In this document: one piece after another, positions 3,175-45,987 of the stretch | How positions within the stretch are numbered: the stretch's first letter is position 1 | Layout: every line of letters begins with the position of its first letter | Source: Botryllus schlosseri | Taxonomy: Eukaryota | DNA: 64,000 nucleotides | Assembly (NCBI GenBank): GCA_051294905.1 | Contig: CM119373.1 | Span: 1,614,001 to 1,678,000 of the forward strand | Direction: 5' to 3' | Program-made: the position numbers and the translations under genes | The notes under the pieces: model-generated | Told to the model about the DNA's origin: nothing | Seen by the model: the letters and a program-made list of their open reading frames with translations, nothing else | The model's database searches: none

Positions 3175-5046
3175 TTAAGGAAAGTCTCTAACATTGAAAT
3201 CAGTGACTTCCTTGATTTTGCATACGAGATGACAAACTTGCAAAATTGGGAACCTCACCGACAAACTTGCAAAATTGGGAACCTCACGCGACACCATAAG
3301 TCTTAGTTGCGACTCTGGGTTTCCGTTCAGTAAGCGAGTTCGGTACTCGTTTTTCAGGTATTTCATTTGCGAAAAGGCAGACTCGCACACGTAAGTGCTT
3401 CCGAAAATAACAAGAGTTTCTCTAGCCAATTCTCGCAAAAGTGGATATTCATGGGCCATTTTCCACGTGTCAATCAAATTCTCCTCGCACTTGAACTTTG
3501 TCACAAGCTGCTCATCATTCTTCAATTCCAACAGCTCCATCTGAAGGTGTGGCGGTGCACTTTCCGTTTCCACCAGGTGTGGAAAGGCAACAAGTCGTAA
3601 TGTATGTGATATTTTTTGGAAATCTTTGAAACGATCTGCGAAATCCTGCAACACAGTATCAAAAATCCCCGAAAATAAAGTGATCGTAATCTTTTCTACC
3701 TTTATTTCGCAGCTGTCGATGAGAGACTTAAGTTGTGTAAAATGGAAAAAATCACGCTGCTGAATATGAAGTCTAAGGAGACGACATTTGTCACGAAAAT
3801 CCGATACTTTTTTGTACATGGTGCATATCGTTGCTTCTTTTCCTTGTAGGCTTCGGTTTAAAATGTTAACATGGGACAGAAAATCCACAAGAAACGCCAA
3901 ATATATGACAAAGCTCTCATTTTGTAAGGGGCAGTCTTTATTTTTTGTGGAATAAAATTCCAGTATTTCTTCTCGCAACTGTAGAACACGACGAGATGTG
4001 TCTCCTTGGGACAACCAACGTACTGCGGCGTGGTAGAGAATGTCTTCTGCCGACGTTTCGCGCTCTTGCAGAAGTTCTTGAAATTGCCTATGATGAAGAC
4101 CATTTGCACGAATGTACAAGATGATGCGATTGACGTCTTTCAGAGTGTCATTTAAGGCAACAGATTTGACACTCAAGGCTTCTTGGTGGATAATACAATG
4201 AAGGTTTGTGAGCTGGTTATTATCGTACTCTTTCGACACGAATTCTGAAAATCTTGTCACAAAGCCATTTGTGTTACCTATCATTGCAGGTGCTCCATCT
4301 GTACAAATACCGCGAAGATTTTTCAAGTCTAATCCATTGCGAATGCAAGCATTCTTAACAGCCCCAAATATGTCTTCACCACGAGTGTGGGTGGAGAGTG
4401 TTTCCATTGAGAGCAGATCTTCGCAGAACTCAAAATTTGGAGACAGAGAGCGAATGAAGATCAATAGTTGTGCAGAGTCCTTAATGTCAGTCGATTCGTC
4501 GATAGCCAGTGAAAATAAAGTTGCTTCCTCATTAACCTTTGTCTGTATGGAGATCGTCAACTGTTTGGCGATATCATCTTGCCGACGCTGAATTGTACGA
4601 CGCGAGAGAGGAATTGGAGAATAATCAGTTTCCTTACCAGGATGAATGCACCTAACAACGTCCACGAGACATCGCTTATGTAGTTCGCCATCTGAATAAG
4701 GCTTTCCCGCCGCACCAAGATGATGTGCGACTATATAAGACGCTTCGCACAACTTATTTTTCGACTGAATGAAAGCTGATATGCAAGATGTCTGCATTTG
4801 CACACTTTTCTTCAAACTTTCGAGACGACTTTTCCTCGACTCACCCACCATTTTTGCGTACTTGTGTGACACATGACGACGAAAATGCTGCCTTGCATTA
4901 TCTCCTTTAACAGTTTTGACCACTTGATTGCATATCAGACACATCATAGTATGGGCTGCCGTTTCTACCATAAAATAATCCAACTCCCATTTGATATTTA
5001 ATGCCCTCTTCTCCTCTGTTACTGTTCTTTTTCGTTTTACTGACAT
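3175..5046 (-). CDS. hAT transposase, GTF2IRD2/SPIN/Buster-like
   Basis: Uninterrupted ORF (likely ATG at 5046, MSVKRKR): N-terminal CxxC...H...H zinc finger, FSLAIDESTD, CTDGAPAM, HCIIHQEAL, VRWLS, FGSTYVCESAFS motifs (DDE catalytic residues present). C-terminus frameshifted by a 29-bp duplication. Confidence 0.92.
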   Translation of the reverse strand: MSVKRKRTVTEEKRALNIKWELDYFMVETAAHTMMCLICNQVVKTVKGDNARQHFRRHVSHKYAKMVGESRKSRLESLKKSVQMQTSCISAFIQSKNKLCEASYIVAHHLGAAGKPYSDGELHKRCLVDVVRCIHPGKETDYSPIPLSRRTIQRRQDDIAKQLTISIQTKVNEEATLFSLAIDESTDIKDSAQLLIFIRSLSPNFEFCEDLLSMETLSTHTRGEDIFGAVKNACIRNGLDLKNLRGICTDGAPAMIGNTNGFVTRFSEFVSKEYDNNQLTNLHCIIHQEALSVKSVALNDTLKDVNRIILYIRANGLHHRQFQELLQERETSAEDILYHAAVRWLSQGDTSRRVLQLREEILEFYSTKNKDCPLQNESFVIYLAFLVDFLSHVNILNRSLQGKEATICTMYKKVSDFRDKCRLLRLHIQQRDFFHFTQLKSLIDSCEIKVEKITITLFSGIFDTVLQDFADRFKDFQKISHTLRLVAFPHLVETESAPPHLQMELLELKNDEQLVTKFKCEENLIDTWKMAHEYPLLRELARETLVIFGSTYVCESAFSQMKYLKNEYRTRLLNGNPESQLRLMVSREVPNFASLSVRFPILQVCHLVCKIKEVTDFNVRDFP

Positions 5047-5648
5047 ATTGCGATGTAGACCAACTTTATAATGTAATTGGGCTATAAGGAAAAAGTTTTG
5101 TCTCAATGTATTATTCTCTTTCCGTTTGCTCAATACACCCACACCCACTCAATGTTATCCGCTTACCAAGGCTTTTATAACTACGGTTCAACCTATCGCA
5201 GTATCGCCAATAGGCCCCTCACATTTGGACCTCGCGACAAGACTGACTAAGCTTAGTCCTTGGTCCTCATACTTAACCGACATTGGCGAAGTGTGACGTA
5301 ACAATGCAATAATAAAACGCTAGGCGAAGTCAGCTTTACCGGCAACCGGTAGTCATGACAAGTGACGACTGGAAATAAAATTATCCAATTCACTGAAGGC
5401 GTTACACAGACAATTACGGGTTCATGTTAATGGAAACTTTCAAGATTGTATAGAAACTCCTTCTGTCCACATACATGAGGATTCGTCAATTTCATAATGG
5501 TTGACTCCAATACATACAGATGAGAAGCAGATCTATATTTAGCAATCATTATTGTGCCCTCAACTCTCGATAAAGTGCACGATAGTCGCATATTCGTATC
5601 GCAGGAAGCCTAATAAGCAAATCTGAAATTGACGAACCCGGACGAGGA

Positions 5649-6175: not shown

Positions 6176-7316
6176 CAGGGGTGGGCAAACTACGGCCCGC
6201 GGGCCGCATGCGGCCCGCCACGCCGTTTTGTGCGGCCCGCGAGAGTCTAAATAAACTATTTAAAAATTTTGATAAAATGCGTACTAAAAATCGAATTAAT
6301 GCAGGGATTTGATTAATTTTTTCTTATTATTTTTCAACATGATAATTCTAAGACAGTGGTTTTCAAACTGGTGGGCGCGTCCCCCTTGGGGGCGTGAAAG
6401 CATCTGGGGGCGTGAAAGCATCTGAAAGGGTCGCGAAGCTGAGCTCGACTGAAAAAATTTTCGCGCTCCGCGCGATTTTCATCCGATTCAGTGTTAGTGC
6501 TATGTAGGGTTGTAGGCTATTTAATCTGAATTACATATTTAAAAATCTCTAATCCACAGTCGTAACCTTCCACGCCATCAAAATACCCGTTAGGTTTGCT
6601 ACCATCCTGGTTGCGCTTTGTGATATGACGATAAGGGACCGAGAAATCTTTGACCATCATAAGGGGGCGGGGCGTGTCTTAAAAAGTTTGAGAACCACTG
6701 ATCTAAGGTAAATACTTGATATCACAGCGTGATAGCTGCAACGAGATTAACATAATTTGGATCACCAGTGAGATTTCAGATTGCCCACTTCATTTTTAAT
6801 TACTTCAGTAAAGTGCTTATAAAAAACGATTCGGGCGTGTCTTAAGTACATTCGTTGTCTGTATGCGTGGAATGGGGGTATTTATATTTTATCTACACAT
6901 AGTAGAAGCGTGTTTGAAGCTAACATGGTTATGATGCTGTCAGCATTTTGTGTCCTGGAACTGAGCTAAAAGTGGAATTACTAAATCTATAAACAGATCA
7001 CTGCTCACAGATTTATATTTCAATCCTATTCTAAGAATCGGGCAAACCGCCTTTTATCTCTGTAGTTTTGACAAATTGGTTATTGAGGTCCGCCTGCCTA
7101 TGAAATCTCGCCACTATGTTTCTGACGCGTGTACGATATCATCAAAGCAATATTTGGCTTGTTTTAAATAAGCACATATATTGTCTCCATGTCCTCACTA
7201 TATAATCAGATATCAATATTGCGTTTTAGGTTATAATCCCAATTTTAATAGTGCGGCCCGCGAATGAATTCAGATGTTGAATGCGGCCCGCGAGCTCAAA
7301 AGTTTGCCCACCCCTG
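6176..7316. mobile_element. Non-autonomous hAT (Charlie/Buster-type) element
   Basis: TIRs CAGGGGTGGGCAAACT / AGTTTGCCCACCCCTG; perfect TSD GAGTAGAG (6168-6175, 7317-7324); GGCCCGC subterminal repeats. Confidence 0.92.
6354..6700. mobile_element. hAT MITE nested in 6176-7316
   Basis: TIRs CAGTGGTTTTCAAACT / AGTTTGAGAACCACTG; degenerate TSD TTCTAAGA / ATCTAAGG. Confidence 0.75.
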
Positions 7317-7855
7317 GAGTAGAGGTTTCGTATTCCTCCAATCATTTTCGATCTGCCCCCAGTTCTGAATCTCAACTCAACAGGGGCATTATTTGCAGCT
7401 GTGCGCTCGATCGGTATATGAACTGCCCAGATAGGTATACGGTACCTGTTTCATTCCTTTCAAATGAATAGATATTGACATCGATATGTTGGAATACTAC
7501 ATGAAAGTGAATGGGAACAGCCTACAGCAGGTTTACAGCAGTACCTTACAACTATTTGAGCATGAGCACCCAAATACCTCAATACGAATTTGTTGGGTAT
7601 TTCAATGATATGATGTGAGTGTCAAAACAAGAGATTATTGAGCATTAACCGGAACACCCTCATTAATGCAATTGAGCCACACCAATTACGGTTTGTGCAT
7701 TTTTTTAAAACTCTTGGTAATCTCGATACCTCAATTGTAACATGCAATTCAAATATTCGACATGCCACGCTATTGGCATTCAGTAATAAATTTACAAGGT
7801 AGCTGAGACGGAACATAAACGTCTGAAAGGACTTGGAGGCACGTAATGTAGACAT

Positions 7856-8130
7856 TAGGGCTGTTGAAAAATAGCTTTTTTTCCTGAATCTTGATGGTTA
7901 TGTGATTAAATCGTTAGGTTGCCTTAAAAAACGACGCACACCAAATTTTAATTGATTAGAACCAATAATAGCTGATTTCGTACAGTTTGAAAATTCAAAA
8001 TTTTTTTGTCAACCCCATGAAATTGTTGTGCTGTCTTCAAAGACGATGCAAAACAAATTTGACTCAATTCCAACCAGTAGAAGCGGAGTTTTTGAGTTTT
8101 TCGATGATAATTCTTGGATTATCCACCAAT
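7856..8130. mobile_element. Truncated relative of the foldback element at 30763-31310
   Basis: Starts TAGGGCTGTTGAAAAA; shares CACACCAAATTT and AACCCCATGAAATTGTTG...TCTTCAAAGACGATGCAAAACAAATTTGA blocks with 30763-31310; second arm not seen. Confidence 0.65.
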
Positions 8131-9339
8131 AATGAATGGAACGTCAAACGTCGAGATGACGTAACTGGCAACATGATAAACCGTTTTTGTGAAAATTAGC
8201 TATTCTTGCCTGATCCTGTCTTTTTGCATGCTTCATTGGATTTTGTGTTAAGGTCTGAAAAGGCAAACGATAAGCTACATGACTGTTAACATAATGTTAA
8301 CATACATGTCACGTAATACGCTACACTCACACCCTAATGAAATTTACCGAAATGCATAGATAAGTGTATATGATGAACTATTAATACTTAGCAGTACTTT
8401 GTATGTATGCGCCAAAGCAGTACTTTTTGTGTATGTATATTAAGAGCTGCCTAGCAAGCATGCATATTTCAATCGTAATTTTCTCGAAACCGCCTCTGCC
8501 ACTAGTGTAGCAAACTTTCAGTGCAGCAGCACCGCTGTATATCGAATCGTTGTCGCTTGCCATGTCTATATCCAGTAGTCTGCTGGAGTTGGTTACGCCA
8601 GCCGCTGTCTTCCTTGCACGACCAATGCCATCATAATGTGCCGCAGCAATTTCGGCACTGTGCACAGACGACATGGCAACGTGTCCAGCGGAGGCTGCCG
8701 GCCATAGTGGCGACTATCTTTCTTATATGTTTGGTACGTAAGCGTGATGTCTTCTTTCTTGAAATATCCTGACTCGTATGGCAACTTGTGAAAGTTAGCC
8801 TTATACGCGCTCGATCCAACGTTGTGTCCGTCGGCAATTTTGTCAGAGTGCTTTTTTTCGCCAATGGGTTGAAACATACGAGAGGTGTCAACTGACACTG
8901 AACTTGAACACAGTCACACCATGAGACTTATTGTGTTGACCTATTGTGTACCACTTAAACTATTGCTGACCCGACGGTTATACCTATATTCGGCGCAATA
9001 ACTGGTTTGCAGTACAGGCTAATGATTTTATACCCGTTAGCGGTTAGCAGTTAGTTTACTGTCGAATTGTCAGCGACAGCTTTTTCCAGAATGAAACACA
9101 TGCTGAAAATGACCCAGGAAACAGGATAGTAATTTGAATCTTTTTTGGTGGATACGGTGCAATAATTATGTTCTTACCACATTTACTGTATACATAGTGA
9201 AATTTGAGTATCACATTTACTGTATACATAGTGAAATTTGAGTGGGAACTCCTTAACGAGAAACCTCATTTTCATGTATGCTCAGATAGTTAAAATTGGT
9301 CGTCCACGTAGGGTTATAAATGGTAGCTGTATAACTTTC

Positions 9340-10829: not shown

Positions 10830-12790
10830 GCGGTATATACATCGACTCATGACACACATGCACACGATCTGCGCATATGCATACCATGATGCATGATGTG
10901 CATTGTGCATATGCCGCTGGATAAGGAAGTACAGATATAGCCTTAGGCTTTCTAAGTCATGCACCACCTCCATGCAGTAACGCATGAGCGCAAAGCAGGG
11001 AAGTCATGGATACCAGTGTTCATAGGCGCTGAACTCTAATTTTCCCTAGGTATGCGAGATCGATGACGTCACAAAGGGATGACGTCATAGTGCGCCAGAA
11101 TTGGCAAATTAGCCGACTCGCAAGCGTTCAATATCGCCTGGCACTTGACAAAATTACGATATGATTAAGCAGGCCGCGTAGCCAGTCGGCTGCTTGCTGA
11201 ATTGATTGAATCTAATTCAAATTTACCAAGGTAGCATCAGTTTATTATGGTTAAGTACATGCACCAATGCCGATAATACATCGATCGGATCAGCATCCTT
11301 GTGTAATATACTCGACACATCACGCTACCATAAGATTACCAACGCGTGCGACTGTGTAGTCAATTAGCGAGCTCGCAATCTCCGCAACATATTCGCCAAC
11401 ACACGCGCCGACAATCGGGAGATTTCAATCACTCCGCCTCGAGAACAAACGAATACGCATCTTCGGCGACGCCTAATAAGGTTGCAGGAATTATTTTCCC
11501 AAATAGAAAGTCTGTTCTGGACTCTATTCATTAGTGACTTTGATTTCATAGGAGTTAGAAGTTTCAATATCAAGAGCCTGCAAGACATTTTCTGATCGTT
11601 CAGTTTTAGTATTAGCGTTAGTCAAAATCAATTACGCCGCTGTCTGTTCACGGTCAGTATGTATTTCAATCAATTCCGTCCATGTTCAATGTCTGAGCCA
11701 GTCTGACAACACAATCACAGAAAAAGCGATACTTCCGGCCGACGCATAAGATATCATGTTCCTTCACAGCAGGAGATGACAATCGCAACATTTCGCGCAT
11801 ATATAGAAATTGACATCTTTAGTATCGAGTTCTCGGTCTTGTTGCCTCGCGTTGCGTCTTCTGACCACTCGCGTTTGATCAAATATTCAGGCGCATAGCC
11901 GAGTTGTTATGGAGTGTGTCCTATAATGGAATCCGCATCGATTTCAGGTGGTTCAAACCTTTCTCAAAACTCAAGCCTTGACTCGCATCTTCTGATGGTT
12001 ATTGGTTATGTTTAAGTATTAGCGGAAATCAAGTACGCATGTACGCACAAGTCACACATTTTTGCGGACATTCGATGTCAGTAAGTTTCGTGATATCAAT
12101 CTTTAATCACAACCGATAGATAGGAGCCAAAGCATGCTAGGCCGGAGACGCGATAGATAGGCCGGCAATGATATACTTCGAACCACGCAGACACAATTGT
12201 GTAGGCCAACGATGTTATCGTGCGCAGGCCAGTGATGGTATAGTGCGCACCGGGCCTATTGCAGATGCGATTCATCAAGCCAGCGGAACTAGACCTGACG
12301 GAGACGCGATAAATCAGGCCTGCGACGATTGCGCGCGGTAATCAATGACCTAATTTCGCAATCATCTCAGCGTCGAGATCGCGTTGCGTTACATAGCGCG
12401 CAAACGATTCTCGCAAATTGGAAACGCGCTTCCGGCTAATTGGCCGTGGCCGCGCGCAACACTGATAAAATACTGACAACTGAATTGTAACTGAAGGACG
12501 GAGTTTTGTTAAGCGCCTGAACGTATTGCTGCCGGTTTACTTACGTGTTCAGCAGCACTACGAAACGCTTATTTCTAAATCGATCAATTCACCAGCCAGT
12601 CAGTAACAGACCAAACCGAATTCTGGGTATGCCGCATACCCAAAAAAATTCCTAGGTATGCGCGGCATACCTAGCATACCTGAGTTCAGCGCCTATGCCA
12701 GTGTTACTAATCAGGTCTTTGGTCTGACCCGGCCGGGAATCGAACCCACGACCTACCGATCAAGAAGCCGGACGCTTAACCATTACGCTA
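10830..12790 (-). mobile_element. tRNA-derived SINE (Meta-domain-like core), interrupted by 11021-12697 insertion; 3' boundary approximate
   Basis: Minus strand head TAGCGTAATGG (box A)...GGTTCGATTCCC (box B) at 12790-12735, followed by GGTCAGACCAAAGAC...AACACTGG|TATCCATGACTTCCCTGCTTTGCGCTCA which rejoins across the insertion. Confidence 0.7.
11021..12697. mobile_element. Non-autonomous DNA transposon with CATAGGCG TIRs (hAT Tip100-like or P-like)
   Basis: 16-bp TIRs CATAGGCGCTGAACTC / GAGTTCAGCGCCTATG; perfect 8-bp TSD CCAGTGTT (11013-11020, 12698-12705); GGTATGC subterminal repeats; no coding capacity seen. Confidence 0.9.
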
Positions 12791-15910: not shown

Positions 15911-16518
15911 ATCTACAGCTTCCACTAGCAAAATCAAATAGTCAGCGGATTGTTATCTGGGACCCTCCACAAGAAGATCATCGCATTTCCGATACATTGG
16001 CATGAGGCACATGCCAGTTTGAAGTAAATATTTGCACAATAGTTATTAATAAAGGCTCGACCACATAATATCCCAACTCCAGGCGACCAATACTGCAGCG
16101 ATCTGCGTGATGATTAGTATTTGTTTATCGTTAGCGTGGCTAGAAGTTCAAACTATATCTACCCCACTTCCTGATCTATAATCCTAATGCGAGAGCGTTT
16201 GAAAATTGACTTTTTTGATGATTCATTTGTATAATTCGTTCCCAAAATAAAAAATGAAGCACTTCAAATCACACCATCACCGCAAGAATATTAACACCGA
16301 TCACACCATCACCGCAAGAATATTAACACCGAACAGGCATCAAGGGAACACCGATCATTTGATCACGTTGTTACAGAAATCGATTATGACGATGAATGTC
16401 ATTCTTCAGTACCGTATAGATAGGTGGATCAACGTGACCACAGTCCAATACACTATTTACAATGCGGTCATTCTAATTTCGGAGTACGGTAATAGATTTC
16501 ACTCTCAAAAAGACAATA

Positions 16519-20388: not shown

Positions 20389-22045
20389 TCTTCAGGACAT
20401 TTTCAGAGGACTGGCGGAGACTTACTGCAAATAGATAAGACCTCAGTGGGCAGAATTGTTCACTAGGTCTCGAAAGCAATTGCTAAAAGAAAGCGTAATT
20501 TTATGAACTTTCCTAACACGCAACATCAAATCAATTCAGAACAGATGGCATTTCATAGCGAGCATCAGTTCCCCGGGCTAATTGGACGCATAGATGGTAC
20601 ACTGCATTCTCACCACCTGGACTCTGAATACGAACATGAGTGCAATCAATTGCACCTATCACATCTGGAAATGATGCGATTGCAAAAAATTCCTCCTTCA
20701 CACTCCGTAGGTTGGAATGAGGCCATCGTACGAAAGTCCAGAGATTAGCAACTATGACTTTTGAAACCTGTAAATGAAAATAACTGAATTTGCAAAAGGG
20801 CATGCAATCGAACACCATCACTTCCTTACCTCCTTGATTACATTTGATACTGCCGGCTGCGAAATGCCTTCCAAATCACCAGAAATCAATTGAAAAGAAC
20901 CGCTGCTTGTGAAGCGTAAGAATATCAACATTTTATGCAGTACTGGTAGAGCAACGCCTTTACTAGAATGTCTGAAGTCATTCTGAATGATCGCAATGAA
21001 GTCATGAAGGCCTTGTTTTGTGAAGCGATAGCGTGCTCTAAATTGGTCGTCAGAGGTATTTTCCATAGGGTTTTGCAAATCTGCCAGTCGACGTTTCGGT
21101 ACTCTTTCATGAACTAAATCACGATCACGATAATACTCTTCCCCAGTCCACCTCATGAACTCTAAAAAGTTCATCTTTTCATCAGCAGTCGCGCAGTACA
21201 GCTACCACGATCCCAATCCCAACAAATGAGAGATTATTCCCCGTTTTTGGCGACTTAAATGTAAACAAGTCTTACCGAGCGAAGAAATTTCTTCCATGAT
21301 ACCATCACGGATCCACCGGTTTCATTCTCGAATTACGCTCGGCATCACAAGAGTCGTCGATGCGTGACCATAAATAATTCCCGTCTTACGAAATAGTTGT
21401 TGTGATGCGAAACCGAATATAATTCGGCGAATTATCGTTAATACGAGTTTTACATTGGTTTCGAAATACGGGCATTAGATCACCTGGTGGACCTAATGCA
21501 GAGTTATTCAGGAATCGCATAGGTTATTTATCCGTAAATGTACAAGTTGTTTGCAATTCTGCAATGGAATTCACGCACATTGTCGCGAGATGGCCAGGAT
21601 CGACTCATGACAGCAGGATATTTGAATCCAGCTCACTCCCCGTGTATATGTCACGAACAAACAAACTGCATCTTGGTGACAGTGGATACCCACTGTTGCA
21701 AAATCTGATAACTCCGCTCTCAAATCCTCAAACCGTCGCAGAGAGGCGCTATTATCGCTCCCACATATCTACCCGCATTAAAATTGAAAGAGCGTTTGAT
21801 GTATGGAAGCAAAGGATTTAATGCTTGATGAATCCACTGCACACCAGATTAGATAACTCGCTCGTGATAATTGTTTCTACTGCGTGCATCCGCCGACACG
21901 AAGACCTAAGTGACATTATGCAGCTCTCAGATAACGTTGCTGATGTAATAAATACACTCGGGAGCGATTTTGGGCATACGCCAGATAGTACTATTTCAGG
22001 TAGAGCCAAACGCAGAGAAATAGTGTCCAGTCATTTTACCGAACT
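20389..22045 (+). pseudogene. Harbinger/PIF (HARBI1-like) transposase, split by an opposite-strand insertion at ~20601-21473
   Basis: SSGHFQRTGGDLL...FPGLIGRIDGT (to ~20600) resumes at 21474 as IRSPGGPNAELFRNR...VNVQVVC...ARWPGSTHDSRIF...LGDSGYP...IERAF; stops and frameshift present. Confidence 0.85.
20601..21473 (-). mobile_element. 5' fragment of a second Harbinger element: terminus plus intron-containing HARBI1-like transposase N-terminus (exons 21174-20830, 20767-~20601)
   Basis: Minus-strand start GCCCGTATTTCGAAACC at 21473 (Harbinger-type TIR); DDQFRARYRFTK, LRFTSSGSFQ..GDL.GISQPAVS, FPDVIGAIDCTHV motifs; 62-bp GT-AG phase-0 intron 20829-20768. Confidence 0.82.
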
Positions 22046-27400: not shown

Positions 27401-28079
27401 ATTGCTGCTGTACTTAGACGAATCATACGGTAATAAATGAAACAGAATCCAAACGAAACTCTTTAATGACCAGAAAATTGTGGAGTTTGAAGTGAATTCT
27501 CGGTTATTTTCAGTACAGCATGATTTTTGATATTAGATACGAACACAAAACTGAAGAATTTCGAGTGCTAGCTGTTTCCCGAAATATGCCCCAAGAGGCT
27601 CGAATTATCCGACGAGGCAAAAAATTCTGACCCACTCTGTGTGGAGTACCAATTGAAGCACTGCAGCAATGGAGAGAGATCCATCTGCGGCCCATTTATC
27701 GTGACATTAGACATAAGCATCGCATCATCTCTGTATTATTCAATTCGCCAGCAACTGACCGAGAAGTAGTAAAATATTATCAAATAATTAGTCATTTGAA
27801 AGCCATATGACAGGTCTTCACCATTCACCAACCCGTTTGTTTTTCAAACAACCGCTACGTCGAAGCAGCGTTGTTAATCAAGAATGGATATTTTGCTCGG
27901 GGTGTGATCACTGCGGATCATGAAACCGTGAGGAACGATGAAGGCGATACAACGTTTCTCACAAGACCGCAAAATCCGTTCCATTATAACGTCCGCAAAA
28001 TCCGTTCCATTATAACGTAACGCTGCCGGCGAATTTTTCCCGGATGTTCGATTACGCACAAGTTGGTCTTCGCACCACA

Positions 28080-28533: not shown

Positions 28534-29872
28534 TGATTCTGATAATTGTTCATATTACCGTTTTCTTTCATTGCTTGAAGTTTCGGTGGGAAGTTTTCAT
28601 AATGTTGTATTTTACCGCAGGTATATTGCTTGTAGTTCCTGTATTTTGGTAATAGTAAGTTGGTAATAGTAAGTTAAGTCTTTTTTGTTGGCCACCTTAT
28701 GCAATTGTGTAATTATGTTTTAATGCCGTTTTTTGTCATTCTATTTTATTTTGGCCATTTGATTAGAGTTTTTTTTCTTAGCATTGTGAGGTATTTTGTT
28801 TAGTTTGTCGCTTTTATGATTTCATTTCTAAATGCAATTTTGTAATATTCAGATAATGCTTTCACAGCATCAGTTTAAAGGTTTCTAAAACATTAGTGAG
28901 CCGTTTCAATGTTGGCGTCGAGAGAATTCGGGATAAAGCGTGTGGTTTCAGCTTGTCGGAACAGATGTTTGGTGTCAATGAAGTGAGGAATAATCGTCGT
29001 TGGAGAAGGACATGTGTAAAACTATGAAAACTTTAGGGAGCATGGCGTTGTTCGGTAACGCCATGGTCCCTGAAGTTAGAGGCAGTGTTACATAATATCA
29101 CATCAATAATATAAAATAGTTGTATTCAAAGTGTTTGTGGTTGCAATGTCTGTGTATATATAGTTTATTGCCTCTCTGAGATTATACTGTTTCATGGTTT
29201 CGTCGTATATTTGCAGGAACGTATGCGTCACTATTTAAACTTCAGATAGCATGCGGTTGTTTCATGAACTCATGTCATTTGAAGTTTAACATAGCGTTGC
29301 ATAACATGACGATAATTGTCGGATGAGTTGTCTTGAAAGATTTTGTGCTTCCAAGTTTTATATACAGTGTGGTGCCGGTTTTGCACTTCCTTGTTTCATG
29401 TTGTAGGTGCAATGTCCGACACCACACTGTGTCATGACGTAGCCTTCGTCGTCGAATTAGGATCGACCTACAATTCGTATCGAAATTCTCACCATATTTG
29501 TTCGCGTATTATGACGATGGTGATAGCATTAATCCTGGTCCTTTACTTTCTTTAATGTACTAATCTTCTTCCTTCAATAACACGCGTTCATACAGTTTTT
29601 ATTTTGCGTTTATTTTTTATTTTTTGAACTTGCGTACGTGAGGAAGCTGCGTGAATGCGAACAGGCACTCTCACACAACCCAAATCATTCGAGAAACACG
29701 TTCAAAAAGCAGTAACATCACAATCGGCAAGACATCGAACAAGTTCACTTATACCCACATGACTGCAACACAGAACATTAATACAGAATGCCAACACCAT
29801 ATCAAGATATCTCGTTCAGCAGCTGCAACATCCATCGATGCCATACTTACAGGGATACCCACAAAAATTACC

Positions 29873-30677
29873 GGCGCTTCTTCGATATACGCCCGAGATC
29901 GAAACAGTGCTTCACGTAACACCATCAAGTGCTTCCCATGAGCACGATACAATTTTATAAGCGTCAAAATATTTTATTTTTGCCTTTGGAGAGACAGATA
30001 TTAGGGTTGGAGGTGGGTTAGGGTATTCCACGATTAGGGTTGGGGAAGAGGGATATTAGGGTTGGATATGGGTTAGGGTCAAAGTTGGGGTTAGGGTATC
30101 CCAAGATTAGGGTTGGGAAGGGGGATATTAGGGTTGGGGGAGGGTATAAGAGTTGGATGTGGGTTAGGGTTAGGGTCAAAGTTGAGGTTGGGGTATCCCA
30201 AGATTAGGGGTTGGGGAAGAGGATCTTGGGGGAGGGGGAGTTGGATGTGGGTTAGGGTCGAACTTGAGGTTGGGGTTTCCCAATATTACGGTTGGGGGAG
30301 GGGGTTGGATGTGGGTTAGGTATACCCTAACCTAAACTTTGACCCCAACCTTAACCCTAACCCACATCCAACCCTAATATCCCCCTCTCCCCCAACCCTG
30401 ATCTTGGGATACCCTAACCCACATCCAACCCTACTATCCCTCCCTTTTCTACCCTAATACCCCCTCACCCAACCGTAATCTTGGGATACCCTAACCCCGA
30501 CTTTGACCCTAACACATATCCAACACCAATATCTCCATCCCCCAACCCTAATATCCGTGTATTCAAATGCAAAGAACTATTTTGACGTTTATAAAATATT
30601 ATCGTGTTCATGGGGAAACAATTACGGGTGTCATGGGGAACACTGTTTTGATCTCGGGCGTATATCGAAGAAGCGCC
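29873..30677. mobile_element. Foldback non-autonomous DNA transposon (GG...CC ends, 8-bp TSD; Merlin- or MULE-like) with telomere-like internal arrays
   Basis: Arms start GGCGCTTCTTCGATATACGCCCGAGATC and end GATCTCGGGCGTATATCGAAGAAGCGCC; ~100-bp unique inverted arms; perfect TSD AAATTACC (29865-29872, 30678-30685). Confidence 0.88.
29997..30555. repeat. Head-to-head TTAGGG-containing minisatellite (G-rich 29997-~30322, C-rich ~30323-30555)
   Basis: Degenerate units like GGGTTAGGGTATCCCAAGATTAGGGTTGGGGAAGAGGGGATATTAGGGTTGGATGT, strand switch at TTAGGTATACCCTAA (~30316-30330). Confidence 0.9.
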
Positions 30678-30762
30678 AAATTACCGACCCGTCTACCCCA
30701 TCCTTACAGGGGGACCCCTTCAATCCTATCCTTTCAGGGAAATAACTGCAACACACGCACAC

Positions 30763-31310
30763 TAGGGTTGTTCAAAAAAAACTTTTTTTTCCAAATCTCA
30801 CTCGCCTGGTGACTAAATCGTCAGGTTGTCCAAGAAAACGATGCACACCAAATTTGACTCAATTCGAACCAGTAACGGCCGTGCAATCTTGAATTGAAAT
30901 TTTTAAATTATTATTAAAAATAAAAAAATTCTCAAATTTTTCTGTCAACCCCATGAAATTGTTGGAGTTTTTCGTTGAAATTTCTCGGATTATCCTTGAT
31001 TGGTGGATAATCCGCGATTTATCAACGAAAAACTCACATAAACCCGCTTCTACTGGTAGGAATTGACTCAAATTTGTTTTGCATCGTCTTTGAAGACAGC
31101 TCAACAATTTCATGGGGTTGACAGAAAAATTTGAGAATTTTTATTTTTTTATTTTTAATAATAATTTAAAAATTTCAATTCAAGATTGCACGGCCGTTAC
31201 TGGTTGGAATTGAGTCAAATTTGGTGTGCATCGTTTTCTTGGACAACCTGACGATTTAGTCACTAGGCGAGTGAGATTTGGAAAAAAAAGTTTTTTTTGA
31301 ACAACCCCTA
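30763..31310. mobile_element. Foldback MITE with ~200-bp near-perfect TIRs (TAGGG ends, 8-bp TSD; hAT-like)
   Basis: TAGGGTTGTTCAAAAAAA... arm to ~30965 is the reverse complement of ~31102-31310; perfect TSD ACGCACAC (30755-30762, 31311-31318). Confidence 0.92.
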
Positions 31311-31857
31311 ACGCACACAGATGAAGCGTCAACGAAGGACAAAAAAGCCATCCCAAACGTCAAGAGTCCAACGCTATGATTCTGATCAGCCTCGATCGTC
31401 CTCACCCGGGAGCGCCCTTTCAATGTCTTCCTTCAAAGAAAGTCACACATGCAAAAGTTCCGCCGATAAGAAAGTCAATGCAAAACAAAGTGGCTCGAGT
31501 AGTCTTCAACCAAGATAGCAAAGCACTCCTCCAAAGATGTATCTCTCTCCAGCATGTCATGACCGAAATCCAACATATCTTCAATTCTTCAGTAACACAC
31601 TGCCCGTACCGTGGTCCTGGCGTGCTCGCCACTGTAGAGGCCTTTGTTCACGGTACAGGTAAGTGTTTATTCCAACAACATAGCCCAAACCGGGCGTACA
31701 CACGTCAACACATCGGAAGAGCGGCAGACAGTCCGCTCGTCGAGACAGTCCAGCACGAAAGAGAGCGAGTACGGTACAGCATGCGTGACAACGATAATAT
31801 TGGTCACCTACGGCAGTAGCAAGCAGGGGTGCTACAGTTGGATTGCATGTTCTAGCA

Positions 31858-37501: not shown

Positions 37502-39614
37502 TAGGGCTGTACACCAGAGTTGGATCAATTGTAATTTGTAATTGTAATTGAATGTATTTAATTACATTTTTCAATGTAATTGTAATGTAATTGTAATTGA
37601 AGCATTTTTATTTTGTGTAATTGTAATTGTAATTGTAATTTGACAAAAATTTTGCTCAATTACAATTTCAATTACATTAGATTGCTATTGAGACCTGACA
37701 AGCACAACATAAAACAATTGACTTATAATGCATTCTCTTTAAACGAACGACAAGGAATATGGTGGATCCATTCGCGGAAGCCCTTGACTGCGCCCTTGCG
37801 GGCGAAGTTTATTTTTATTTTTACCGCTATGCTGGCCTCGGCTGCCATTCAATACAATTTTTAAATTATACTAACCAACCGATGTATTCGCAACACGTGA
37901 CTCACGATTGAATACGCCGAGAAGCGAACTGCTGAGCCGGCTAAAAGCAGCAGAATAGATAGTCCCACAGCTGGCGATCCAAGAGTCGAAATTTGATATG
38001 TATGGTCGTAATCGAAAGCTAGTGTCGCACTGATTCCGCGATAAAAGTATATTTCCAGGCAATGGTACCATCCCAAAATAGTCGTGAAAGTCTGGGAATC
38101 GGCATTGTTCTGAACAATCGCTATGGGCGTAACTGGTAATTGTTGTAGTCATGCTGCTGAAGCGCTCTCACATTTCAGAACAGTCGGCCTCAAACGGCTA
38201 TTTTGGAGCAGTTACATTGCCCTGACGAGATTTTATTTTGTATTTTCGGAATTAGTACATCAATAGCTTACGATGAAGACCAGATGCATCAAATTCGGAC
38301 GCATGGATCGCCAGCTCTAGCACTATAAAGTTTGCTGGTTTTAGCCGACTTTTCAGTACGTTTGTCGGTGCATTCATCCGTGACTCACATATTGCGCATC
38401 TATCCGTGGGTTGGCAATCTACAATACGATTTCAGATCACGATGATGCATCGTTATTTCGTCTGGCTAACTAACCAGACCACTGGATATTATATAACGTC
38501 TTATCTGACAAAGCACGGTTTTGTTTTTACTCCTCATCCTAATTCCTACGTCCCTCGATAAAAATAATATTGTTTCTTTAATTATATACTATATACGCAA
38601 ATCCAACACATGCATATATTATAATACTTTTTCAACGACATACTGCACCCTATCCTCAATCCTAACCCATAGGAAATTAGGTAAATAACATTTTACATTT
38701 CCAATTACGTGAGCCATAATTACCTAGCATACAAAACACGCTTACATTACGTCACAGTGACATCTTACATAGCATACTATGTAGCCTACGCACATCAACG
38801 CAATTATTACTACACAATCTGAACTAGACTTGAATTGTTGTTAAATACGACGCTACGGTTGTCAAGGACCACGGTTGAATTTATGACTATTCAATTACAT
38901 GTTCAACAGCAGCAATTGTAATTGTAATGTAATTGATGCATGCAAGGAGTAATTGTAATTGTAATTGTAATGTAATTGATGCATGCAAGGAGTAATTGTA
39001 ATTGTAATTGTAATTTGATATTTTTAGCATGGAGTAATTGTAATTGTAATGTAATTGAAACATTCATGAAAGTAATTGTAATTGTAATTGTAATTGAACT
39101 GAAATAATGTAATTGATCCAACTCTGCTGTACACAATGATTTGAGTACTCGAATCTGAATTGAGTATTAATTTTAATGATTCGAGTCGAGTAGTAAATGG
39201 CGATTTTTTCGAGTACTGGAAATATACCCTCCTTGCCGCTGAAAGTTGATTTATTAACGAGAATTGTAGTTTCGATACTAATTTTCACTGTTGAAGCCTT
39301 GAAATCTTGATTGGCCGTATCGTAGCATACGAAACAAACAGTACTAAGTACAAAAGTTACTGGAAATAGCACATTTCCGAAGTCGTGGGATGGAAATAGC
39401 ACATTTCCGAAGTCATGGTCATCCCACAACATTGTCACCAAGTGCATTGAAATCGGTAATGTCGCAAAAATACCAAATCATCTTTAATGTGATGGATAAC
39501 AGACAGTATTCTTTGTGGTCGCATAAAAGGTATATATATATTTGAAGTTTGACATATTTATTCTGTTATGTCGTCATAATCAATCACTCAGGTACTCGAT
39601 TTTGCCCAGCCCTA
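37502..39614. mobile_element. hAT-like MITE with TAGGGCTG ends, disrupted in its left TIR by 37515-39126
   Basis: TAGGGCTG at 37502 / CAGCCCTA at 39614; TSD CTTATTAC / CCTATTAC; ACTCGA subterminal motifs. Confidence 0.7.
37515..39126. mobile_element. Non-autonomous hAT-like element with (GTAATT)n subterminal arrays
   Basis: TIRs CAGAGTTGGATCAATT / AATTGATCCAACTCTG; perfect TSD CTGTACAC (37507-37514, 39127-39134). Confidence 0.92.
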
Positions 39615-41772: not shown

Positions 41773-42014
41773 TGTTATGTTCGTGCATTTACGTTCAGTG
41801 TTGTTCAACTCCTAATATCTATAGGACTAGTAATTACCGCCAATCATTATTTCCTAGTGTGTCGTGCTTGTATATATACCCTGTGTTCTGTTGTCTCGTG
41901 GTCTTTCATTTAACTGCACTCTGGATCGTGTCGCCTGCCTTAAAGTTATTCTGCTGATAATATACTGATTTCGTATTGCTACCTCGTCGTATTGAGTTAA
42001 TGTTCAAACAAGAT
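41773..42014 (+). repeat. 5' LTR (last 13 bp missing)
   Basis: TGTTATGTTC start; 5 mismatches to 3' LTR over 242 bp; breaks at AAGAT into inverted gag. Confidence 0.92.
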
Positions 42015-42563
42015 TCAGCGATTGGTTTGTGTTAGACAATGCCGTCTCACATCCGCGTGCGGCGTTTCTTTAATGATGAGATCGCGCATTAGCTCATCAA
42101 CGTAGCTCTGATCACAGCCATCTCTTGCGCATATGAAGTTGCAATCCTTGGAGATTCCGCGTAGAGTTGCAATCCAATCGGCGTACGATTGCCCCGGTTG
42201 CATTTTGCAATTGTAAAATTCGTACCTGGCTGCTTGCACATGAATGGAGTCCTTGAAGTGTGTAGACAACTTCTCAGTCAACGCGTCGAAGGTTTGCGCA
42301 CTGACATCAGCAGCCCCAAACAAATTACGTAGGAGCGAGTACGTTTCAGGTCCGACCCATGAGAGTAGACACGCTCTTTTTTTCTCCATGCTGGAAATGC
42401 CGTAAATTGCTAGGTGATGGTTGAATCGTTGCAGATATTGGTCCCATTTCTCCTTTGATTTGATGAACGAATCAAACTTGGGAGCAGTAGCTTCAGATGC
42501 TGACGTACCGGGATTCAACCTCTGCGTCAATTTCTGCTCAGTGCCACTCCTCTCCTTCGACAT
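42015..42563 (-). pseudogene. gag: Gypsy gag N-terminal fragment, inverted relative to LTRs and pol
   Basis: PKFDSF...EKWDQYLQRF...LLSWVGPETYSLLRNL...LSTHF...ARYEFYNCKMQPGQSYADWIATLR..SKDCNF is a typical Mag-type gag. Confidence 0.85.
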
Positions 42564-45500
42564 CGATCAACTATATCGACGCGTGGGAAACCAGCTCTGG
42601 ATCAACTCCAGCATCAACGGCATTCCCTTGCCGACACAGTGGGACACTGGTGCACCCTCCGCCATGGTGGGATTGACTGGGTACAAAACTTTGGTCTCTC
42701 CGAAACTCTCAGCATACCATTGCTCTTTCGTAGCGTACGGCGACAAGCCTTTGAAAGTGAAAGGTATTTGCACTGTAACCGTACAGGTGGGTTCTGAAGT
42801 TCGAGTTGGCTTAAAATTGGTGGTTCTCGACGAACACCGTGGGCAAAACATTTTTGGTCTTGATTGGAGCGATGCTTTCTCCATGACCGCTAAGGGAACG
42901 TCTGCTTTGGATGCAATTTCTTCGCAGATGGTCAAATCGCAATCATGTAATACTGTTGACATTTCTGATTCGAACGACAAATTGGTATCTTTTCAGTCCA
43001 AATTTCCCTCCGTTTTCTCTAATGTATTAGGACGATGCACCAAGACAAAGGTGACAATTCACTAGAAACCTAATGCCAAGCCCGTATTTAACAAGCCACG
43101 CCCTTTGCCTTTCGCAAGGCAAATCGCTGTTCAAACCGAATTGGATAGATTAGTCAATCAAGGTATCCTCGAACCAATCAATTACAGTGATTGGGCAGCA
43201 CCAATTGTTGCCGTCACTAAATCAAATGGATCAGTACGCATTTGTGGTGACTTCAAAGCATTGAATCAACAAATCCAGATAGATCAACATCCCCTGCCCG
43301 CCTTAGATGAAATTCTTCACAAGTTACAGGGTGGTTGTATTTTCACGAAAATTGATCTTGCCGATGCTTCTTTTCAGCTAGAATTAGATGATGATGCGAA
43401 GAATTTGTGTGTCATCAACACGCAATTGGGTCTATTCCGTTATCGACGCATGTGTTTCGGAGTCGCATCTAGTCCCGCAAATTTTCAACGCTGTATTGAT
43501 GCCATGATCGCCGGCTTACCCGGTGTTGCTAGTTTTATCGATGACATAATCGTTACAGGCATTGATGAACGCGACCATTTTCGCAACTTATCGCTACTCT
43601 TTGAGCGCCTCACCGAATACGGTTTCACCGTCAATTTCGCGAAATGTGAATTTTTCAAAAGTAGTATCGAGTACCTTGGTCATATAATCGACAAGGACGG
43701 CAAACGCCCCTCTCACAAATCCGTTGAAGCAATCAAACAGTTGCCTAAACCTCAGGATGTTTGTCAGCTACAGGCATTCCTGGGCAAAGTCAATTATTAT
43801 CGCGCGTTTATTCCTAATTTCACGAATAAAGCCGCTGCCTTGTACCGTCTTCTTCAAAAAGACGCGGAATTCATTTGGAATACGGACTGTGACGCAGCTT
43901 TTCGCATTCTCAAAAACGACGTAATCGACGCTACGCAGTTAGCTCATTATGATGTAAACAAGCGGCTCATTTTGTCAACGGATGCTTCTCAATTCGGAAT
44001 CGGCGCTGTCCTCTCAATCGAGCACAATGGCGAAGAGTGACCGATCGCGCACGCATCGAAAACACTTTCAGATTCGCAAAAATCCTACTCTAAAATAGAG
44101 AAGGAAGCTCTGTCAATCATTTACGGAGTCACTAAATTTCGTCAATTCTTGTAGGGTAGAAAATTTACGCTCGTAACGGACCACAAACCGCTTTTAGCTA
44201 TTTTCTCGCCGGACAAGACAATTCCCGTGATTACAGCGCAACGCTTACAGCGATGGGCACTAACGCTCATGGCTTACCAATACGATATTCGCTATAAACC
44301 GACTAATCAGCACGGTAACGCCGACGGTTTATCTCGCCTACCAAAGGGTCCAGACCTTGAGTTTGACGAACTGGAAATTCGTGAAAACGCGGAGATCGTT
44401 CACGCTATAAATATGGCATTCGATGGCTTACCGTTAACTCGCAATGAAATTCGCGACGCGACGCTGAAGGACAAAACCATGAAACTAGTAAAATTATCTG
44501 TCACTCATGGTAATTGGAATCCAAAGTTGCACATTGATGATTTTTCTTGGTTTTCGACTCGCAAACATTCGCTTTCTTTGCACGAAGGCATAGTCATGCT
44601 CAATATTGATGGTTTTCAGCGCGTAGTAATTCCGCAGTCACTTCGCTAGCGAGTCTTATCATTGTTGCACGAAGGACATTGGGGTATCGCGAAAATGAAG
44701 CAGATGGCTCGACGTTACATCGCATGGCCTTCCATTAATCGCGACATTGAAAATCTCGATAAGAGTTGCGACGCTTGCCGTAAGGTAATGAAAGCGCCTG
44801 ATCGTCAGTATCGCGAATGGCCTAAAACTTCTGAAAGCTTTGAACGAATTCACTTGGATTTCGCAGGTCCAATTAACAATAAAATGTTTCTTGTCATCGT
44901 CGATGCGCATTCGAAATATCCTTTCGTTAAAGTAATGAATGTCGGTTCTACCACAACCTTGCGTGTGGTCAACGCTTTGAGGGAAGTCTTCTCTATTGAA
45001 GGCTTGCCCGTAACAATCGTCACGCATGGCGGACCGCAATTCGCATCGAATGAATTCGATACGTTTTGTTCTAATTTGGCAATCAGCCATCTCGTATCAC
45101 CGTCTTTTCACCCTGCATCAAACGGGGAAGCGGAGCGTTTCGTCCAGACTTTGAAAGCTGGATTGATAAAAAATTGCGACGGGGGAAAAGATATTAACTT
45201 CGCGCTCCAAACACTTCTCGCTACTTACCGATGTGCACCGCACCCGGGCATAGACTGGAAAACGCCTGCCGAGATTTTACATGGTCGACAGCCGCGTAAT
45301 TTGTTAAGTTTGTGCTCGCCCTTCGACAAATCGAAACCCGTTACGCCTGGACAATCAGTCACTCATTTCGAGATTGGTTCCTCGGTTTACGCTCGCAGTT
45401 ACCGAAGCGGATCAAAGTGGGTTGCTGGCGTGGTGACGGAAATACTGGGGCGTGTTGTGTTCATTATAAAAACAGATCATGGGTATTGGAGAAGGCACAA

Positions 45501-45699
45501 GAACCAACTCCAACCACGCTTGATTTCAGCTGGCAATAATACAGCCACACAGGAAGTTGTTCAGCCTCAACAGTCACAAGCTGAGCAACCATTGGTTAGG
45601 AACAGGGCACAAGGTCCTGCAGCTAGTCCTGCCCGTACGTCGGGTAGACGTTATCCTCTTAGGAATAGGAAACCCCCGGATTTCTATAGACCTACGTAA
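42564..45699 (+). pseudogene. pol: Gypsy pol (protease, RT, RNase H, integrase) with four in-frame stops
   Basis: Single frame: WDTGA protease, WAAPIV/RICGDF/KIDL/FIDDII RT, TDAS RNase H, HEGHWG..C..C and RIHLDFAGP/SNGEAER integrase; stops at 43063, 44038, 44152, 44647; integrase second Asp reads His (VTHGGPQF). Confidence 0.93.
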
Positions 45700-45732
45700 A
45701 TGTGGGCATCCCTTTAACTTACAGGGGAGGAC

Positions 45733-45987
45733 TGTTATGTTCGTGCATTGACGTTCAGTGTTGTTCAACTCCTAATTTCTATAGGACTAGTAATTACCGC
45801 CAATCATTATTTCCTCGTGTGTCGTGCTTGTATTTATACCCTGTGTTCTGTTGTCTCGTGGTCTTTCATTTAACTGCACTCTGGATCGTGTCGCCTGCCT
45901 TAAAGTTATTCTGCTGATAATATACTGATTTCGTATTGCTACCTCGTCGTATTGAGTTATTGTTCAAACAAGATCAAGAACATAACA
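45733..45987 (+). repeat. 3' LTR (255 bp)
   Basis: TGTTATGTTC...GAACATAACA terminal inverted repeat, preceded by polypurine tract. Confidence 0.95.

Follow-up and report, generated by a model that had tools for sequence, protein, structure and literature searches.

Telomere-fusion sites and interstitial telomeric sequences (ITS) take the form of head-to-head TTAGGG/CCCTAA arrays. PMC8101967 defines Merlin transposons by terminal inverted repeats (TIRs) of 24-462 bp, a terminal GG and target site duplications (TSDs) of 8-9 bp. The same source notes that Merlin elements often contain tandem repeats (PMC8101967), and its supplementary material tabulates mirrored arrays in Merlin-2_DR (79 bp x12.5 and x9.7), Merlin-N5_DR (113 bp x5.2, twice), MERLIN2_CB and MERLIN4_CB (PMC8101967 S1 Table). 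Many tandem repeats borne by MITEs are listed in PMC6947457.

Here we describe a foldback element at 29873-30677 of a 64-kb window, the window being the whole stretch of DNA that was analyzed. We regard it as very probably a non-autonomous, Merlin-type cut-and-paste foldback whose head-to-head join arose by loss of the middle between mirrored arms. The resemblance to a fusion is a by-product of those arms, and the locus offers a clear case in which a transposon, not a fusion, yields the head-to-head TTAGGG/CCCTAA signature. Evidence on other copies is drawn from the assembled contigs of four out of thirteen listed sequencing runs, namely X1, X7 and X8 (organism A, three studies) and X5 (organism B); X1 may be the source sample.

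Boundaries, ends and insertion site

The element is 805 bp long and runs from GG to CC, with the coordinates exactly as given in the preliminary description, which also named its perfect 8-bp TSD correctly: AAATTACC is found as a direct-repeat match on the forward strand at 29865-29872 and again at 30678-30685. A 9-bp duplication is incompatible with the flanks. The ends form a perfect 28-bp TIR, which begins with GG on the left (29873-29900, forward strand) and ends with CC on the right (30650-30677, reverse strand), and contigs of other copies end at the same borders, at 29873 in records 5 and 19 and at 30677 in record 32. The TIRs belong to longer non-repetitive arms (29873-29996, forward strand, and 30557-30677, reverse strand), which align with each other at 79% identity (99 of 125 columns). 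These outer arms had been called unique and about 100 bp long; they are unique within the window, but they measure about 125 bp and, by contig depth, are highly repeated in the genome. When the left half of the element was aligned with the reverse complement of the right half, 306 matches were obtained in 458 columns, of which 111 were gap columns. The two halves are thus mirrored, with a DNA fold z score of -26.7 (against 20 shuffles), but what had been termed a near-palindrome is a loose, gapped one.

A degenerate 28-bp repeat of the host is split by the element, with one unit on the left (29832-29859, forward strand) and two on the right (30689-30716 and 30717-30744, with 21/28 and 19/28 matches), all of them outside the element. 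Contig record 9 of run X5, at a depth of 4.48, aligns to 29659-29868 and leaves 83 letters over, and a depth of 4.48 is encountered again at about 30689-30760; 72 + 7 letters of the remainder would match an empty site with one copy of the TSD. Judging from this equality of depth and length, record 9 is a probable empty site, and since the flank is itself a low-copy repeat, it may be a paralogue.

A telomere-like core and its strand switch

Between the arms lie two mirrored arrays that are built from four shared modules in identical order, forming higher-order units of 55-90 bp. The left, G-rich array (29997-30322, forward strand) comprises about 4.5 such units with modules D-A-(B)-C and contains 12 TTAGGG, 6 YTAGGGTTR, one TTAGGGTTAG at 30164 and 2 canonical G-quadruplex (G4) matches. 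The right array (30323-30556, reverse strand) carries the same modules in about 3 units, with 8 TTAGGG, 3 YTAGGGTTR and 2 canonical G4 matches. A core module with GGGTCAAAG occurs at 30073-30091 and 30170-30188, and we take it to resemble both the GGGTCA variant of the telomere repeat and the direct-repeat sites of nuclear receptors.

The earlier account of TTAGGG units followed by a CCCTAA mirror holds in part. The 12 TTAGGG of the left half and the 8 CCCTAA of the right were reached by none of 1000 dinucleotide shuffles of either half, but exact hexamers cover only 21% (left) and 20% (right) of the sequence, the repeat is organized in its modular 55-90-bp unit and there is no telomere array. 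Just one tandem pair of TTAGGG is present, at 30164, all other hexamers being single, and the longest run is 2 units if exact and 3 units if one mismatch is allowed in each. The view of TTAGGG as an incidental sub-motif is nevertheless weakened, as a lag of 6 gives the top autocorrelation in the left and right halves alike, and TTAGGG ranks first among 342 repeats of 5-7 letters over A, G and T (score 170; runner-up 134). The same score was 57 +/- 10 in 200 dinucleotide shuffles, with a maximum of 82, and the core is 67% identical to an ideal (TTAGGG)n, compared with 50-53% for base-shuffled controls. Because TTAGGG is the best-fitting repeat and lies far above the shuffles, "telomere-like" is a fair label. 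The probable ancestor of the array is a TTAGGG-type microsatellite, which first decayed and was later multiplied in the form of a 55-90-bp higher-order unit.

The strand switch lies at 30314-30332, where the assembly reads GGTTAGG-TATAC-CCTAACC; TTAGGG and CCCTAA do not directly abut there. At position 30321 nearly all of the depth in the four runs has G, with which the switch reads TTAGGG-ATA-CCCTAA. The point of the switch is a quasi-palindromic GGG(TAT/ATA)CCC module, which is a plausible site of crossover or template switching between the arms. At the center the perfectly paired stem measures only 7 bp, and the arms are gapped, which leaves a weak cruciform potential; the description of the element as cruciform-prone was accordingly abandoned. 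Its description as G-quadruplex-prone was borne out, in that all 4 canonical G4 matches of the window, and 8 of the 10 stretches with a G4Hunter score of at least 2.0, fall inside the element.

Other copies in the sequencing runs

In X1 the flank has a depth of 26 and the arm one of 10,203; in X7 the figures are about 100 and 61,403, so that the arms stand at very roughly hundreds of times the flank depth in organism A. A rough depth conversion gave 160-420 copies in X1, 315-670 in X7 and about 30 in X5, with the reservation that summed depth is not copy number. Diverged contigs begin or end at the termini of the element, or within a few bases of them, pass from arm into core and continue into foreign flanks (records 5, 8, 19, 24 and 32). 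With this step in depth and these diverged copies in different flanks, the element is mobile and multi-copy, as the preliminary description had proposed. The core travels with the ends: contigs run from arm to core, and each TIR pair is accompanied by 408 bp of core sequence in X1 and by 545 bp in X7, against about 560 bp in 29873-30677. Most of the core-like DNA in X1 and X7 can therefore be attributed to elements, and other copies do not lack the TTAGGG core. The family is present in X5 too, as is a flank of 94% similarity, at lower relative depth and with more core, 1505 bp per end. The copies are 5-15% diverged, with frequent core substitutions, and no second copy was found within the window.

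No contig among those listed from the four runs spans the whole locus, and none of those listed bridges an element-flank junction under the 31-letter rule, record 3 having 27 letters inside. The first of these observations could speak for an assembly or chimeric-read artefact that gave a false palindrome. We hold that reading to be exceedingly improbable, given that the arms disagree in 26 of their 125 columns, unlike a read fold-back, and that the center is bridged in two other studies, by record 13 of X5 (30249-30373, 6 differences, no gaps) and by records 29-31 of X8. The strand switch is genuine in these contigs. In X1 and X7 a center identical to that of 29873-30677 reaches only about 1-2% of the depth at element ends, and further joints from G-rich to C-rich strand occur in other copies, among those listed 30117>30340, 30088>30361 and 30117>30209; most copies may have other middles.

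These joints also bear on whether the locus is the decayed relic of a true telomere-telomere fusion that joined ends sharing homologous subtelomeres. The head-to-head G/C geometry and the 67% identity to ideal (TTAGGG)n would fit such a relic. A fusion or ITS would, however, be expected to show tandem head-to-head (TTAGGG)n arrays at a single locus lacking TIRs and TSDs, whereas only a degenerate 6-bp period is present here, in a multi-copy element with TIRs and an 8-bp TSD that interrupts a continuous flank repeat and for which there is a probable empty site. The copies have different flanks and several strand-switch points, and the modular unit is common to both arms. We consider a fusion relic at this locus largely refuted and highly unlikely, although an ancestral element may have captured one. 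The claim of telomere-fusion mimicry thus survives for the geometry and for nothing beyond it, and 29873-30677 is a transposed insertion, neither an artefact nor a fusion scar. Such copies could mislead scans for telomere motifs, calls of interstitial telomeres and inferences of fusion in this genome.

Run X8 departs from the other runs. Over the core (29973-30574) its median depth is 29x that of X1 and over the arms 0.048x, a difference of about 610-fold, compared with 1.1-fold in X7. The head-to-head center per end is 6.6 in X8 against 0.01 in X1. Because the center is enriched as well, selective capture of element cores is a better account than a free unidirectional satellite. The pattern comes from one run, one of the three listed runs of its study, and is probably technical. 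It could stem from a reduced-representation library or from amplification with G/T-rich primers, with convergent priming on a core of this kind; ChIP, ATAC or RNA enrichment may also be its source.

X8 is of interest for a further reading, in which TRF/Myb sites and G4 tracts in the core attract proteins of telomere type or give rise to TERRA-like transcripts, with effects on chromatin or on persistence of the element. Nine YTAGGGTTR motifs, predicted to be of TRF1 type, are present in the element; according to PMC3241663, a human TRF1 dimer requires two of them, whatever their spacing or orientation. The concentration of G4 matches in the element and the enrichment in X8 of core and center, arms excepted, would agree with such a function. 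Against it, the POT1-type TTAGGGTTAG occurs once only, the divergence of the copies extends to frequent substitutions in the core, and the X8 pattern is equally given by amplification or reduced-representation bias. We think a functional core unlikely. The same low credence applies to its fullest version, in which a Merlin foldback captured the host telomere repeat and reworked it into a higher-order unit laden with TRF-type sites and G4 tracts, hundreds of scattered islands are bound by telomere proteins or transcribed in TERRA-like fashion, and the roughly 600-fold effect in X8 is the footprint. Were the core bound by telomere proteins or transcribed, a cut-and-paste element would be spreading telomere-like chromatin over hundreds of internal positions.

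Classification and comparison with described elements

Several features place the element among foldback elements and MITEs, including long modular inverted arms, internal tandem repeats, nil coding capacity and many dispersed copies with sharp common termini, the counts being rough. Its ends agree with Merlin, as the inverted repeat (28 bp perfect, about 125 bp imperfect) is within 24-462 bp and has a terminal 5'-GG-3', and the TSD, AAATTACC at one locus, is 8 bp. A DDE_Tnp_IS1595 transposase was not found inside the element, where no stop-free frame exceeds 88 aa and Pfam gave no match to the three longest overlapping frames; this is expected of a non-autonomous member, and membership in Merlin is thus by ends only. 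No Merlin or MULE domain was detected among the 78 window frames scanned of 162 listed, and no transposase with these same ends was identified. The Merlin assignment accordingly remains a sequence-based proposal from one TSD and the GG ends. MULE TSDs measure 9-11 bp, and of the Merlin/MULE ends proposed earlier, the Merlin part is retained for its GG and 8-bp TSD and the MULE part is dropped for TSD length. No Rfam match was found in the window, and short words of the element recurred elsewhere only as chance matches without extension: a 16-mer at 23 viral loci (sequence-collection scan), a 19-mer at 2 metagenome loci and a 21-mer at 1 genome locus. A 19-mer core motif was found at 0 viral loci.

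TSDs of 8 bp are not exclusive to Merlin, and the ends could instead belong to a MULE or to another superfamily with such duplications (hAT, P-like), the rest of our interpretation being unchanged. Three more window elements have 8-bp TSDs (6176-7316, 11021-12697 and 37515-39126), and a hAT transposase is present at 3175-5148. Those three elements start with CA or TA, whereas 29873-30677 starts with GG, and GG ends are a stated Merlin hallmark in PMC8101967; we therefore judge a different superfamily to be quite unlikely.

The window is transposon-rich animal DNA. At 3175-5148 (reverse strand) a 657-aa stop-free frame encodes a hAT/Spin-type transposase, to which a 410-aa protein in the protein collection is 97% identical; the best named match is a Styela clava protein (74% over 58%), which is weak evidence on the host because transposases move between hosts. 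A palindromic element, 30763-31310, lies 77 bp to the right of the foldback, with TAGGG-type ends, an 8-bp TSD ACGCACAC (30755-30762 and 31311-31318) and 165-bp arms that are 99% complementary, so that it is nearly a full palindrome; related sequence is found at 7852-8130, and we presume it to be a young hAT-type MITE. The TIR element at 37515-39126 has CAGAG ends, the 8-bp TSD CTGTACAC, an internal palindrome at 37873-38412 and, close to either end, degenerate AATTGT arrays that share one orientation, which indicates that subterminal arrays of simple repeats are not rare here. A DDE_Tnp_4 fragment is present at 21423-21821 and a Gypsy-type pol at 42418-45699, the latter in a Gypsy-type LTR element (41773-45974) that has 242-bp LTRs 98% identical and pol in several frames and is nested in another repeat. 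The superfamily labels hAT and Gypsy for window elements are our assumption and go beyond the Pfam names. Perfect tandem duplications of 12-34 bp, in two copies each, are also numerous (e.g. 2923-2977, 9178-9243, 16268-16332 and 27967-28018).

For the Merlin-type foldback we propose the following origin. A TTAGGG-type microsatellite would have decayed and then been amplified as the 55-90-bp higher-order unit. The resulting G-rich array may form the inner part of a long TIR and would hence be mirrored by construction. The ends would be recognized by a Merlin transposase (IS1595-like DDE) whose gene lies elsewhere, and this enzyme would excise the element and insert it at a cut staggered by 8 bp. 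Recombination between the arms at GGG(TAT/ATA)CCC, or a template switch between them there, could have removed the middle and produced the head-to-head join; other copies switch strand elsewhere. The element would then spread G4-prone, telomere-like DNA as passive cargo.

With ITS and fusion sites the locus shares the switch from G-rich to C-rich sequence, the dominance of TTAGGG and the G4 potential; unlike them, it has a longest exact run of 2 units, is bounded by TIR and TSD and is multi-copy with different flanks. The literature searched, which lacked most subscription papers, yielded no description of a Merlin element or foldback built around a TTAGGG-based core. Mirrored repeat arrays in Merlin elements are already known, and the telomere-like cargo is real and was not found described.

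The Tetris element of Drosophila virilis is likewise a non-autonomous foldback with tandem repeats in its TIRs and modular and rearranged forms (PMC4079207). Tetris has a 220-bp unit and seeds kb-size satellite arrays (PMC4079207), whereas the core of X1 and X7 is about what the elements alone hold. Also comparable are Merlin-N5_DR, Merlin-2_DR, MERLIN2_CB, MERLIN4_CB and Merlin1m_CI, which, according to PMC8101967, have the same GG-terminal TIRs, an 8-bp TSD, no transposase and mirrored tandem arrays, the 79-bp period of Merlin-2_DR being similar to the 55-90-bp unit of 29873-30677. S1 Table of PMC8101967 gives periods, not sequences, and an array listed there (e.g. Merlin-1_Aplcal, 6-bp x39.5) may be TTAGGG-like. 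In comparison with the Merlin elements as described in that survey, 29873-30677 differs in that its array is a degenerate TTAGGG-period unit and its two arrays abut without a spacer.
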